From the IMG/VR virus record IMGVR_UViG_3300029310_000003: 64,000 nucleotides of DNA; one strand, 5' to 3'. The stretch comes from a virus. The notes beneath the pieces are model-generated. The model saw nothing but the letters and a program-made list of their open reading frames with translations, was not told the origin of the DNA and did no database searches. Positions 27,589 through 40,962 of this stretch are shown here, one piece after another. The position numbers and the translations under genes are program-made. Each line of letters starts with the position of its first letter. The stretch's first letter is position 1.

Positions 27589-27612
27589 AAGCCGCCCAAC
27601 CGGGCGGCTTTC
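27589..27612. repeat. 24-bp direct repeat / terminator hairpin (copy 1)
   Basis: AAGCCGCCCAACCGGGCGGCTTTC, identical to 27953-27976. Confidence 0.9.
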
Positions 27613-27614
27613 CG

Positions 27615-27643
27615 TTGACAAGGCGAAATTTCGACGATAAAAT
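27615..27643 (+). promoter_or_regulatory. canonical sigma-A promoter of toxin 1
   Basis: TTGACA-17 nt-TAAAAT. Confidence 0.7.
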
Positions 27644-27720
27644 AAAAAAGCCCCATTGGGGCGGGGCGCTGCCAAGGAGGCGGCAGGCGGTCGGCACTTC
27701 CTGAAAAGGAGGTGTTGCTT

Positions 27721-27807
27721 ATGGTGACATATTCCGATCTGATTCAGATTGGTATTTTGATCGTAGGCATTTGCTCTCTGGTTTTCCAGATAAGCAAAAA
27801 GAAATGA
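27721..27807 (+). CDS. type I toxin, holin-like 28-aa hydrophobic peptide (copy 1)
   Basis: MVTYSDLIQIGILIVGICSLVFQISKKK with RBS AAGGAGG and a structured leader. Below the ORF-track cut-off. Confidence 0.65.
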   Translation: MVTYSDLIQIGILIVGICSLVFQISKKK

Positions 27808-27886
27808 CCGTCCCAAGTTAGCCGCTCGGACGGTCATTCTTTGTAAAATGATCTTTAACTACGGCTGACTGCCTGCGGCAGCGCCC
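27796..27886 (-). ncRNA. putative antisense antitoxin sRNA 1
   Basis: Convergent TTGACT(27923-27918)...TATAAT(27898-27893) promoter. The transcript would run into the shared hairpin AATGACCGTCC/GGACGGTCATT followed by TTTCTTTTT. It overlaps the toxin 3' end. Confidence 0.5.
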
Positions 27887-27952
27887 TTGTTTATTATATT
27901 AACAGCTTGCACAAAAAAGTCAAGCGAAAAGAGGAAAACAATAAACACTGAG

Positions 27953-27976
27953 AAGCCGCCCAACCGGGCGGCTTTC
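27953..27976. repeat. 24-bp direct repeat / terminator hairpin (copy 2)
   Basis: Identical to 27589-27612. The two copies bracket the toxin-antitoxin cassette. Confidence 0.9.
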
Positions 27977-28140
27977 GCCATCTATCAAGCCTCGCAGGAT
28001 GCGAAAACCAGCGCAGCTTGAGATCGAGTCGAATGCGCGGATGCATCTGGCGTGCCGTAGGAAGCCATAGAAGCAGAGAACAAGGTGTTATGAGTATCCT
28101 ATCATTATTTCATCAAGTTCGCGGCTTGTAGAGCCTCTGA

Positions 28141-28383
28141 GGGCGCGAGGCTTGCTGGGAAAACGCCACGAAAAAGGCAGCAAGTCGGAAAAACAAGAAC
28201 AGTCTCGAAAATCTCACCCTGAACTCCACCGTAAAGGTGAGCAGACACGGCGAAGAAATCCTGCTGCAAAAAGCGACCATCGCAGGCCGAAAGCGTCCCG
28301 TTTGGGTATCGTGGTCTGACCGCATCTACTACACCACCGCGCAGGTGAAAAACCGAGGATATAAGCTTCACACAGTCGCTTGA
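28141..28383 (+). pseudogene. possible C-terminal gene remnant
   Basis: An 80-codon open frame without ATG or RBS, reading ...GEEILLQKATIAGRKRPVWVSWSDRIYYTTAQVKNRGYKL. Looks protein-like but is truncated by upstream stops. Confidence 0.25.
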
Positions 28384-28407
28384 AATCCCGAAAAATCCTG
28401 CTATACT
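28380..28407 (+). promoter_or_regulatory. sigma-A-type promoter
   Basis: TTGAAA-16 nt-TATACT upstream of the ATG at 28443. Confidence 0.5.
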
Positions 28408-28442
28408 GAAATAAAACGGAAAAAGGAGGAAGCAAAACGCGA

Positions 28443-28670
28443 ATGTTTTATAAACCCGGCGAATACGAGATCAATGGCGGAGAATTTTTCTCCGCCAAAA
28501 CCGGCGAACCTCTGAACAGCGGCGATCTGGCGGGTCTGGTGGCTTACTGCGAACCGAACGACATCTCCCCTGTCGAAACCTACGGCAAAGAAGTTGTGTC
28601 CATGCACCGTGAAGTAGTGACCTTGGACGGCAAGAAGATTCTGTACAAAGGCGCTGTCGTGAGAATTTGA
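28443..28670 (+). CDS. hypothetical protein
   Basis: 75 aa with RBS AAGGAGGA. Confidence 0.5.
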   Translation: MFYKPGEYEINGGEFFSAKTGEPLNSGDLAGLVAYCEPNDISPVETYGKEVVSMHREVVTLDGKKILYKGAVVRI

Positions 28671-28704
28671 ATTTTGTAAACAGAAAGAGAACGGAGGAGA
28701 ACAC

Positions 28705-39230: not shown

Positions 39231-39262
39231 AAAAAACCGGGAGGCGTAAAACCTCCCGGAAT
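39231..39262. terminator. bidirectional terminator between convergent genes
   Basis: AAAAAA-CCGGGAGG-CGTAAAA-CCTCCCGG. Confidence 0.6.
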
Positions 39263-39267
39263 CCCAT

Positions 39268-39441
39268 TCAGCTCTGGCTTTCGCACCATGCGTTCCAGAT
39301 GTTCTCCACAGTCTCGCTTTCATCGTCCTTCAGGCGCTCCATGCAAAAAAGCATGAAGTCTGCAAATCGTTTTTGATTCTTCACCTGACGGGAAATTTCG
39401 AGCAACTCTTCCTGTTCAAACAAAATCGTGCTGCAACTCAT
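39268..39441 (-). CDS. small IWNEW-family protein (paralog 3 of 3)
   Basis: MSCSTILFEQEELLEISRQVKNQKRFADFMLFCMERLKDDESETVENIWNAWCESQS. Confidence 0.5.
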   Translation of the reverse strand: MSCSTILFEQEELLEISRQVKNQKRFADFMLFCMERLKDDESETVENIWNAWCESQS

Positions 39442-39458
39442 GTTTTTCATACCTCCAT

Positions 39459-40220
39459 TCACATCTGCGCATCCGAAATCAAACTGGCGGCTTTCCGGCG
39501 GATAATTGCTTCGAACGCCGGTCGAAGCTTCCGGTCTCGGGAAATGACCTGCAAAATCGAAACCTGTTTGCATTCCGTTTCCGTTGCGCCGTTTTTCCGC
39601 ATTCGGTTGCGCAGACGTGTCTGGCGGCATTTTAAGTCAACGCCGGTTTCCGATTCCAACTCAGCGTAGCGGTCGCTGCGGAACTTTCTGTGATTTCCGC
39701 CGTACTGCTCCACAAGCGTGTTGATCTGGTGATTCATCGCCGAAGTCCAATCGTCCGGGCTGACCGCCGGGGCGGAGAAAATGTCCAGCGTTTTCTGCAT
39801 GGTCTGTTCCGTGCGTTCTGCGCGGTTTTCCAGAGCCTTGAGACGGCGTTCCTGCTCCACCATGAGCTGTGCTTGTGCAAGAAGCTGTTCCGCCGGAGAC
39901 AACTGCGGATTTTTGATTTGCGCTTCCATACGGTTGAATGCGTCGATGTACTTGAGTTTCCATTCGAGCGCAGACTTTCCAGTGAAGCCCATGACCAGCA
40001 GTGAGAAACCATCACGATTCATGAGGTACGCGCGCTGCGGTCTGCCGTAGCTGTCCGGAATTTCGACCGAGAAAAACATCTGCTCAAAATTGAGCACATC
40101 TTTTCTGAGGTCATCAATGTCACGAAGAACATTCCGATGCTCTTTTTCGAAGTGTTCGGCGATATCCCGGCTGCTTGCGACGGGTTGACCGTTCTGGTTA
40201 ATGGTGATTAAATCTTTCAT
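39459..40220 (-). CDS. Rha-family phage regulatory protein + ORF6C-like C-domain
   Basis: VASSRDIAEHFEKEHRNVLRDIDDL (pRha). The C-domain contains SPAEQLLAQAQLMVEQERRLKALE. Confidence 0.75.
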   Translation of the reverse strand: MKDLITINQNGQPVASSRDIAEHFEKEHRNVLRDIDDLRKDVLNFEQMFFSVEIPDSYGRPQRAYLMNRDGFSLLVMGFTGKSALEWKLKYIDAFNRMEAQIKNPQLSPAEQLLAQAQLMVEQERRLKALENRAERTEQTMQKTLDIFSAPAVSPDDWTSAMNHQINTLVEQYGGNHRKFRSDRYAELESETGVDLKCRQTRLRNRMRKNGATETECKQVSILQVISRDRKLRPAFEAIIRRKAASLISDAQM

Positions 40221-40339
40221 ATCAAAATCCTTTCTTGACGCGTCCGAAAGAACCTGATAGAATAAATTTATCAAAGTTTCTTTTGGACTTTGGTGGTTAG
40301 AGCCGTCCGTGATCTTTGCAGGAGCAACGGGCGGTTCTT

Positions 40340-40516
40340 TTATTTTTTGACCGTGGCTTTCACCATCTGAATTCCCAAACGAATCACATCGCTCTTTGTC
40401 TTACTGAGTTTTTCACAGCAATACTCCAAATCCGACATTGTATCTCGATCTGCCAAAAATTTCACCTGTGTATCTTTCGGGTTTTCAGATTTCGGTCTGC
40501 CTGTACGGGGCGACAT
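40340..40516 (-). CDS. ribbon-helix-helix (CopG-like) regulator
   Basis: MSPRTGRPKSENPKDTQVKFLADRDTMSDLEYCCEKLSKTKSDVIRLGI. RBS AGGTGA. Confidence 0.55.
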   Translation of the reverse strand: MSPRTGRPKSENPKDTQVKFLADRDTMSDLEYCCEKLSKTKSDVIRLGIQMVKATVKK

Positions 40517-40546
40517 TTGTATCACCTACTTTCTATGTACATGTTT

Positions 40547-40575
40547 ATTATATTTATATGTACCTAAAAAGTCAA
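40547..40575 (-). promoter_or_regulatory. canonical sigma-A promoter of the RHH-Rha operon
   Basis: On the minus strand: TTGACT-17 nt-TATAAT, flanked by GTACAT/ATGTAC inverted repeats. Confidence 0.65.
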
Positions 40576-40694
40576 CCCCATTTCAGAAAAAATTTTCAAA
40601 TCAGCGGGACAAATCAAAAACCGGCGCTTTCGCACCGGCTTTCCATTCCCATTTCTATTGACATTTTCAAATAACCTGTTAATATAATAGACAA

Positions 40695-40781
40695 GGGCGC
40701 TGCCGCAGGCAGTCAGCCGAAGTGAATCATCTCAAAAAAAGAAATGACCGTACCGGGCTGGGTAAGCGGTCATTTCTTTTT
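40695..40781 (+). ncRNA. putative antisense antitoxin sRNA 2
   Basis: TTGACA(40658)-N17-AATATAAT promoter. The transcript starts near AGACAAGGGCGCTGCCGCAGGCAGTCAGCC and ends at the hairpin GAAATGACCG.../...CGGTCATTTC followed by TTTTT. Confidence 0.5.
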
Positions 40782-40856
40782 GCAAATCTGAACGATCAGA
40801 CCAGCAAAGCCGATGAGTACGAGCGAAAAGGTAAAAACCTCATTCCATGTAACCAT
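40770..40856 (-). CDS. type I toxin, holin-like 28-aa hydrophobic peptide (copy 2)
   Basis: MVTWNEVFTFSLVLIGFAGLIVQICKKK. The leader is about 90 percent identical to copy 1. Confidence 0.65.
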   Translation of the reverse strand: MVTWNEVFTFSLVLIGFAGLIVQICKKK

Positions 40857-40933
40857 CCGCATCACCTCCTTTTCAGGAAGTGCCGACCGCCTGCCACCTC
40901 CGTGGCAGCGCCCCGCCCCATTGGGGCTTTTTC

Positions 40934-40962
40934 ATTCTAGCATCCATGTCAAAACGTGTCAA
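40934..40962 (-). promoter_or_regulatory. canonical sigma-A promoter of toxin 2
   Basis: On the minus strand: TTGACA-17 nt-TAGAAT. Confidence 0.7.

Follow-up and report, generated by a model that had tools for sequence, protein, structure and literature searches.

Two cassettes in an uncultured gut phage as probable type I toxin-antitoxin modules with a predicted RNA architecture of the bsrG/SR4 type

The 64,000-nucleotide (nt) stretch of DNA analysed here, referred to as the window, is from the IMG/VR virus record IMGVR_UViG_3300029310_000003. Its source is an uncultured gut phage of ~84 kb carrying two diverged copies, ~330 nt each, of a cassette with an open reading frame (ORF) of 28 amino acids (aa). 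Copy 1 lies on the + strand at 27.6 kb and copy 2 on the - strand at 40.9 kb, raising the questions of what such cassettes do and whether their inverted arrangement around a 12.8-kb segment has a meaning of its own. The original prediction described two inverted type I toxin-antitoxin cassettes, and reading of both sites found in each a promoter, a structured leader, a hydrophobic 28-aa ORF with a lysine tail, a hairpin and a convergent promoter. The cassettes are previously unannotated, of an already known type I kind, and they form no special bracket or inversion device. The preferred reading, with a probability of about 0.75 as judged from the sequence, takes each cassette for a type I module in its own right, of the TxpA/BsrG-RatA/SR4 kind, and for a self-contained 'moron' on a temperate phage.

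Predicted fold of the toxin mRNA

A MAFFT alignment of the two copies showed 80% mean column identity over ~390 nt, and in a repeat search the pair was the dominant inverted repeat of the window, with arms at 27633-27730/40847-40944 (98 nt, 89%), 27830-27929/40652-40751 (100 nt, 78%) and 27777-27810/40767-40800 (34 nt, 82%). Two exact runs are the longest that the copies share: a leader core of 33 nt, GGCAGGCGGTCGGCACTTCCTGAAAAGGAGGTG, and a 3' element of 29 nt, CGGCTGACTGCCTGCGGCAGCGCCCTTGT. Neither occurs again in the window, where shuffles give an expectation of 0, and an nhmmer profile found the two cassette copies only. The peptides are just 36% identical, yet the leaders show 2 differences and the 29-nt 3' element none.

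The leader has its reverse complement in the conserved 3' element, a feature absent from the earlier account. In an mRNA that reads past the hairpin behind the stop codon (the post-stop hairpin), the leader pairs with this element in both copies, giving a 5'-3' helix, P1, of 22-24 base pairs (bp), and this pairing explains the conservation of the leader. In the predicted fold P1 closes the toxin mRNA and stacks on a hairpin of 8 bp that contains the Shine-Dalgarno sequence (Table 1). The 5' strand of P1 in copy 1 consists of two sub-helices flanking an internal loop at 27674-27682, in which GGAGG is found. The Shine-Dalgarno hairpin of copy 1 is worth -10.7 kcal/mol alone and that of copy 2 is identical. 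The minimum-energy fold of the long toxin-1 mRNA, at -150.4 kcal/mol (z -8.6), includes P1. Forcing the stretch that the predicted antisense RNA would bind in copy 1 to be unpaired gave a predicted fold without P1 and with a Shine-Dalgarno hairpin of 9 bp, compared with 7 bp before.

Relatives of the cassettes were obtained by scanning viral, genome and metagenome collections for the exact pattern of the Shine-Dalgarno hairpin. The scan returned 25 distinct candidate cassettes, one of them a chance match (L045) and three of them Virgibacillus loci. Close relatives lie on syntenic phage contigs of 60-119 kb. The distant ones, found in chromosomal and mobile-element settings, are L006, L009 and L028 (from a Peptococcaceae genome bin and a viral contig), L017 and L022 (from a Faecalibacterium genome bin), L031 and L040. 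For 16 close cassettes, aligned by MAFFT without regard to structure, RNAalifold gave 22 P1 pairs, 0 of which were broken and 6 of which alternate between G-U and G-C or A-U; the post-stop hairpin was also returned, columns 159-167 pairing with 199-207. Minimum-energy folds of full-length mRNAs representing nine cassette clades on other contigs contained 16-29 end-to-end pairs, with 1-6 G-U pairs on the sense strand, and the sense strand was more stable than the antisense strand in 9/9 clades. As G-U pairs become A-C mismatches on the opposite strand, P1 is a structure of the sense RNA, and a functional toxin mRNA must contain the 3' element. Such an mRNA extends past the hairpin, and the antisense RNA would cover the 3' strand of P1.

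In four of these nine clades, the distant L006, L017, L031 and L040, the sequences of leader and 3' element are unrelated and the two-part P1 is retained. In L006, GAGUUGUCGC..GGCGGUUAGU pairs with ACUAACCGCC..GCGGCAACUC, and in L040, where an intrinsic terminator directly follows the 3' strand, CAGGCACA..AGGGCGGCAGGCUU pairs with AAGCCUGCCGCCUU..UGUGCCUG. An anchored test, with the segment chosen without use of structure, gave a helix starting beside the Shine-Dalgarno hairpin, landing on the 3' side 50-56 nt past the stop codon in 7/9 clades and 8-20 bp long, a length reached by 0-7.5% of shuffles. A comparison of cognate with non-cognate sequences using RNAduplex and longest-helix matrices gave no discrimination, the method being too noisy in GC-rich sequence. 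The stems of the 5'-terminal hairpin vary among relatives with pairing retained (GCCATC/GATGGC, GCCCACC/GGTGGGC). Read on the opposite strand, the 5' hairpins of the window are GC hairpins followed by TTTTTT (27650-27667 on the - strand, 40910-40927 on the + strand) and as terminators could act as a backstop against antisense read-through.

Table 1. Features of the two cassettes and of the neighbouring lysis genes. Positions are those of the window; spacer lengths stand between the promoter boxes.
Feature	Position	Strand	Remark
Toxin-1 promoter, TTGACA-17-TAAAAT	27615..27643	+	11 of 12 consensus positions; position kept in relatives
Toxin-1 transcription start, predicted	~27648-27650	+	
Toxin-1 mRNA 5'-terminal hairpin, GCCCC-ATT-GGGGC	27650..27662	+	antisense reading is a terminator
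Helix P1 5' strand, copy 1	27663..27695	+	24 pairs with 27864-27887; RNAalifold
Shine-Dalgarno hairpin, copy 1, CACUUCCU-GAAA-AGGAGGUG	27695..27714	+	buries ribosome-binding site
Toxin-1 ORF, 28 aa, MVTYSDLIQIGILIVGICSLVFQISKKK	27721..27807	+	
Post-stop hairpin, copy 1	27803..27838	both	predicted terminator of antitoxin RNA 1
Helix P1 3' strand, copy 1	27864..27887	+	toxin-1 3' untranslated region; also 5' part of antisense template
Antitoxin RNA 1, predicted, ~95 nt	27795..27889	-	from promoter scan and fold
Antitoxin-1 promoter, TTGACT-16-TAATAT, upstream TG	27896..27923	-	consensus scan
Probable terminator of long toxin-1 mRNA	27953..27976	+	exact 24-nt repeat of terminator 27589-27612
Toxin-2 promoter, TTGACA-17-TAGAAT with TG	40934..40962	-	11 of 12 consensus positions
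Toxin-2 transcription start, predicted	~40929	-	
Toxin-2 mRNA 5' hairpin	40915-40927	-	upstream of P1 5' strand
Helix P1 5' strand, toxin-2 mRNA	40882..40914	-	24 pairs with 40694-40717
Shine-Dalgarno hairpin, toxin-2 mRNA	40863..40882	-	
Toxin-2 ORF, 28 aa, MVTWNEVFTFSLVLIGFAGLIVQICKKK	40770..40856	-	orthologues in L025, L033, L003, L005
Post-stop hairpin, copy 2	40742..40775	both	T-runs on both strands; bidirectional terminator
Helix P1 3' strand, toxin-2 mRNA	40694..40717	-	
Antitoxin RNA 2, predicted, ~90 nt	40692..40782	+	from promoter
Antitoxin-2 promoter, TTGACA-16-TAATAT with TG	40658..40685	+	consensus scan
Probable terminator of long toxin-2 mRNA, GCCGGTGCGAAAGCGCCGG then TTTTTGATTT	40612..40639	-	
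CHAP/NAGPA/SH3 lysin	41009-42511		
Holin, Phage_holin_6_1	42508-42816		

Coding constraint, antisense RNA and family membership

Each toxin peptide has one hydrophobic stretch and a KKK tail. The variable columns of the toxin ORFs fall at codon positions 1/2/3 in the numbers 2/0/8 and 5/5/12, and peptide 1 is encoded identically by 3 different DNA sequences. Judged by this pattern, the ORFs are under purifying selection.

The consensus scan read a convergent promoter in both copies, with a spacer of 16 and not 17 nt, and the sense promoters match 11 of 12 positions and are not the 'perfect' ones first described. The consensus scan found 2 and 3 promoter-like sites in the two cassettes, compared with 0.3 and 0.7 expected. 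A consensus-like antisense promoter was present in 22/23 tabulated cassettes, the exception being L020 of Virgibacillus, and in three clades it scores 12 of 12 consensus positions. The cassettes conserve with it a terminator for the predicted antisense RNA. The U-tract of the post-stop hairpin lies on the antisense strand in every clade inspected, and exclusively on that strand in L006 and L040; in the window, too, the T-run is better on the antisense strand, as had been claimed. The stretch to which antitoxin RNA 1 would be complementary comprises P1's 3' strand, spacer, post-stop hairpin and the lysine and stop codons; the U-tract of this RNA is the complement of AAAAAGAAATGA, the lysine codons plus stop at 27794-27804. 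Together with the coding constraint and a layout like that of bsrG/SR4, the recurrence of the antisense promoter gives in silico support to the type I assignment.

Probing of the bsrG mRNA of SPbeta, a prophage of Bacillus subtilis, showed that nt 1-35 pair with nt 232-262 to form a long helix P1 from which stem-loops branch, with the Shine-Dalgarno sequence within a stem and a terminator after P1; once SR4 binds, nt 1-33 are single-stranded and the Shine-Dalgarno helix has grown from 4 to 8 bp (PMC3834814). The RNA architecture predicted by folding for the cassettes is of this type, with a P1 closure and branching stem-loops, a Shine-Dalgarno stem and, in both copies, a predicted convergent antisense RNA that overlaps the mRNA's 3' part and, within it, the 3' strand of P1. 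Like bsrG/SR4 and the structurally similar bsrE/SR5, the cassettes are phage-borne, those systems residing on prophages (PMC3834814, PMC6562991). A small hydrophobic peptide with a lysine tail is also common to both, and L040 shares with bsrG the terminator right after P1. The toxin has 28 aa here, whereas BsrG has 38 aa. The antisense RNA is predicted to be ~90-95 nt here, as opposed to 180 nt for SR4, and the Shine-Dalgarno helix already has 7-8 bp, as opposed to 4 bp in bsrG (PMC3834814). Further differences are an antisense promoter within the toxin 3' untranslated region, upstream of the sense terminator, a host clade of gut Clostridia, and no significant sequence or covariance-model match.

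The TxpA family provides a second comparison. The peptides begin with M-[VT]-T-[YW]-x-[ED] followed by a single hydrophobic helix, as in that family, and the antisense RNA would overlap the 3' end as it does in txpA/RatA. The Shine-Dalgarno sequence is also very long in the manner of this family (AAAGGAGGUGAU in copy 2, as we read it against the 3' end of 16S rRNA). TxpA is 59 aa, much longer than the 28-aa peptides of the window, which differ from the family in falling under its Pfam threshold. Hol_Tox, the Pfam family concerned, matches 3/8 peptides from cassettes of the same architecture (best 8.8e-10); since a relative passes and the window peptides do not, the family link is transitive only. 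NCBIfam gave weak matches of the peptides to ComI and PepG1. Rfam at gathering thresholds found two tRNAs only and no family on the cassettes, neither BsrG nor an antitoxin family such as SR4, RatA or SR6, the SR6_antitoxin model scoring 15.4 where 55 is needed. A more sensitive scan of the single cassettes returned the weak BsrG matches and otherwise noise below threshold. Searches of GenBank phages gave no match at the DNA level, whether to the cassette or to the late region, and neither peptide was matched by tblastn. The cassettes are nevertheless likely members of the TxpA/BsrG family, on the strength of their architecture and transitive similarity, with no threshold passed.

Long-distance 5'-3' pairing also holds the full-length toxin mRNA inert in hok/sok and aapA1/IsoA1 of Gram-negative bacteria, where activation requires 3' trimming and the target of the antisense RNA is the 5' leader or the start of translation. 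Here, in contrast, it is the 3' strand of the closure that the predicted antisense RNA covers. The toxins of the type I modules of Clostridioides difficile prophages are ~50 aa and of other families, and to our knowledge no P1-type closure is known for them. They resemble the present cassettes in being type I modules on prophages of Clostridia, and a contribution of such modules (CD0977.1-RCd11 and others) to the maintenance of mobile genetic elements is reported in the title of one paper (PMC7699646).

The analysis shows the sequence anatomy, conservation, covariation and coding constraint; the transcripts, the toxicity, the involvement of RNase III and the biological role are inferred, as follows. 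A strong constitutive promoter would give a toxin mRNA of ~300-330 nt, circularised by P1 and with its very strong Shine-Dalgarno sequence buried in the stacked 8-bp hairpin. Such closure and burial would make the mRNA stable yet poorly translated. The convergent promoter would give an antisense RNA of ~90-95 nt, ending at the post-stop hairpin and complementary to the mRNA from the last lysine codons, through hairpin and spacer, to the 3' strand of P1. Pairing of the two RNAs would form a long duplex open to cleavage by RNase III and would strip P1 from the leader, while the Shine-Dalgarno hairpin would stay or extend from 7 to 9 bp. Were the supply of antisense RNA lost, for example with the prophage, the stable mRNA would yield the 28-aa membrane peptide and harm the cell. 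By analogy with the contribution reported for C. difficile prophage modules (PMC7699646), maintenance of the element would be the most likely role.

Several observations weigh against this interpretation. Peptide 1 reaches E 0.001 and 19.3 bits with Hol_Tox (PF16935), under the gathering cut-off of 23.3, and peptide 2 had no Pfam match. The Rfam BsrG model (RF01412) scores 17.7 and 16.8 bits, on the correct strand in both copies, against a threshold of 55. Conservation of the Shine-Dalgarno hairpin among the relatives holds by construction because they were gathered by that exact pattern. Within the close clade the changes in P1 are one-sided, and two-sided covariation comes from the distant clades alone. 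When these were added, MAFFT with RNAalifold recovered the Shine-Dalgarno hairpin alone, the 3' strands being at least 1 column out of register, and because of this misalignment there is no formal pair count across the distant clades. Finally, the post-stop hairpin of copy 2 has a strong U-tract on the sense strand as well, so that many toxin-2 transcripts may stop before the 3' strand of P1, and a short isoform lacking that strand may be the dominant form.

According to a review, txpA/bsrG-like systems are limited to Bacillus, in a few species, and Paenibacillus, in one (PMC6562991), and TxpA-like peptides have been reported in Clostridiales (PMC2887945). The bsrG/SR4 architecture, established by experiment in Bacillus (PMC3834814), would here extend to phages and chromosomes of uncultured gut Clostridia, and P1, backed in the papers cited here by chemical and enzymatic probing alone, gains support from covariation. 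The 28-aa ORFs are in none of the four public gene sets examined, being uncalled in those of the 84,197-bp contigs that encode an identical lysin, and no Rfam model reaches its threshold on the cassette RNAs, which marks an annotation gap. The cassettes are candidate prophage-stabilising or counter-selection modules for gut Firmicutes, which are hard to manipulate.

The scan also reached Virgibacillus, where small ORFs such as MDIDKVLTLMISFGMLITFIMSDKNHKK stand behind an identical Shine-Dalgarno hairpin (L011, L012, L018, L020) and where the leader of L020 is complementary to a downstream element. Such ORFs probably add to the unannotated type I toxins that have this architecture.

Alternative readings of the peptides and of the pair

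The two modules may not be wholly separate, their regulatory RNA being nearly the same although the peptides have diverged. In L005, from another phage lineage, the leaders of the two cassette types differ at 1 position, compared with 5 between the window's copy 1 and its L005 orthologue, so that leader variants cluster by genome and not by ORF type. This grouping is compatible with gene conversion or with a shared antitoxin specificity. A coupled pair, in which each antisense RNA pairs with both toxin mRNAs and the copies are homogenised by gene conversion, is a tentative and rather doubtful extension; if true, the phage would carry a two-toxin network with shared antitoxin specificity.

It might instead be argued that the products are small membrane peptides that serve the phage without being toxic (for instance in superinfection exclusion, in lysis timing or against defences), the RNAs merely tuning their level. 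Cassette 2 is directly downstream of the holin-lysin pair, the peptides have just 28 aa with the weak NCBIfam matches given above, and some predicted type I toxins, for example YhzE-2, prove non-toxic (PMC2887945). However, between lysin and cassette stands a strong terminator, relatives occupy chromosomal sites unrelated to lysis, with an aldolase, a GtrII glucosyltransferase or a tRNA methyltransferase as neighbours, and the RNA architecture is that of proven toxins. A non-toxic function is thus unlikely. The term 'holin-like' in the original prediction is a mere family name, 'holin-like toxin' being an annotation on some TxpA-family members (PMC2887945). A reading of the 28-mers as holins was rejected, a canonical holin of the Phage_holin_6_1 family being present next to the lysin.

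Control may, alternatively, come from the mRNA fold alone. P1 and the Shine-Dalgarno hairpin would then suffice, the antisense promoters being silent or irrelevant and the toxin mRNA perhaps being released by processing. Both predicted states keep the Shine-Dalgarno sequence buried, and hok and aapA1 offer a precedent for 5'-3' closure with activation by trimming. Against this, the convergent promoter is in the same place in all but one of the tabulated cassettes, across clades with unrelated surroundings, and the hairpin U-tract is on the antisense strand in every clade inspected, the only strand that has it in L006 and L040. Fold-only control is accordingly very unlikely, and the type I module with an active antisense RNA is preferred.

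The bracketing role first proposed, in which the 12.8-kb segment would invert by recombination between the two cassettes as homology arms or would be held by their joint addiction, found no support when related contigs were compared. The copies are indeed inverted, with their exact runs of 33 and 29 nt, and the clustering of leader variants hints at occasional gene conversion. However, all 9 cassette junctions, in 7 loci (L001, L023, L025, L029, L033, L036 and L038) on 5 related contigs, are collinear with the window, as is the gene order of the 84-kb contigs L048 and L049, and neither a hybrid junction nor a second orientation of the segment was found among the related contigs examined. The two cassette types lie ~0.9 kb apart, back to back, in L005, L007, L026 and L044, and L003 has one cassette within the 11.4 kb sampled. 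Identity between the copies is just 76-89%. The sole recombinase in the Pfam-scanned part of the segment is the tyrosine integrase beside tRNA-Gly. Given the collinear contigs, inversion was rejected, and inversion or a joint bracket is highly improbable. Lowest of all stands an Fst/par-type mechanism, in which the antisense 5' end would pair with the toxin leader through repeats and block initiation: the convergent layout with its shared hairpin terminator resembles par, but leader and 3' element are inverted and not direct repeats, so that the antisense 5' end resembles the leader rather than complementing it, and the G-U pattern places the pairing inside the sense RNA.

Genomic setting and further features of the window

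The right arm of the window is the late region of the phage, with a tape-measure gene at 48864-53771 and tail genes. Cassette 1 lies behind a SHOCT-domain gene, with terminators on either side, and cassette 2 follows the terminator of the lysin gene, so that both look like self-contained 'moron' inserts. The two terminators around cassette 1, at 27589-27612 and 27953-27976, are an exact direct repeat of a 24-nt hairpin, of which a third copy, 79% identical, is at 29425-29448. Synteny with L004 breaks within the 24-nt terminator, at ~27602, and the terminators therefore seem to be mosaic joints at which inserts are exchanged. A search for an attachment site among the repeats of the window did not find direct repeats of the tRNA ends.

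An intergenic motif of ~46 nt, AAAAATCTGAAA..CGGGACAAA..CCG..GGCAGAACA, occurs in seven copies, often just upstream of + strand genes (23375-23403, 24114-24159, 24357-24402, 25103-25156, 32260-32305 and 32573-32618 on the + strand, and 40589-40634). It lies directly downstream of cassette 2 and also beside cassettes in L003, L033 and L005, and is a candidate for a phage-specific promoter or operator. A second element, GTTGACATAAAAATGTACAAAAAACATTTG, is 30-50 nt long and consists of a -35 box together with a palindrome; it is found at 30797-30851 and 33704-33753 (+) and is inverted at 11629-11658. At the former two sites it is upstream of an ORF6N antirepressor-like gene and of the gene for the integrase. 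It probably serves as a common promoter under repressor control.

Within the 12.8-kb segment, 31849-32310 (+) encodes a 153-aa protein that matches the C-terminal DNA-binding domain of Spo0A only (E 1e-22), with no match to the receiver domain, and that may interfere with the sporulation control of the host. The tyrosine integrase gene (33768-34853) is followed by tRNA-Gly(TCC) and tRNA-Met(CAT) (35167-35240 and 36251-36326). Downstream of these, at 36697-38348 (+), a 181-aa MazF/PemK-like toxin ORF overlaps the start of a class-V aminotransferase ORF, an unusual pairing, and no cognate antitoxin was identified for the MazF/PemK-like ORF. Beside the tail genes, at 45011-48919 (-), is an ORF of 1302 aa with no PHROG match. 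It contains ~10 degenerate repeats, one every ~117-120 nt (39-40 aa), and probably encodes a tail fibre or receptor-binding protein rich in repeats.

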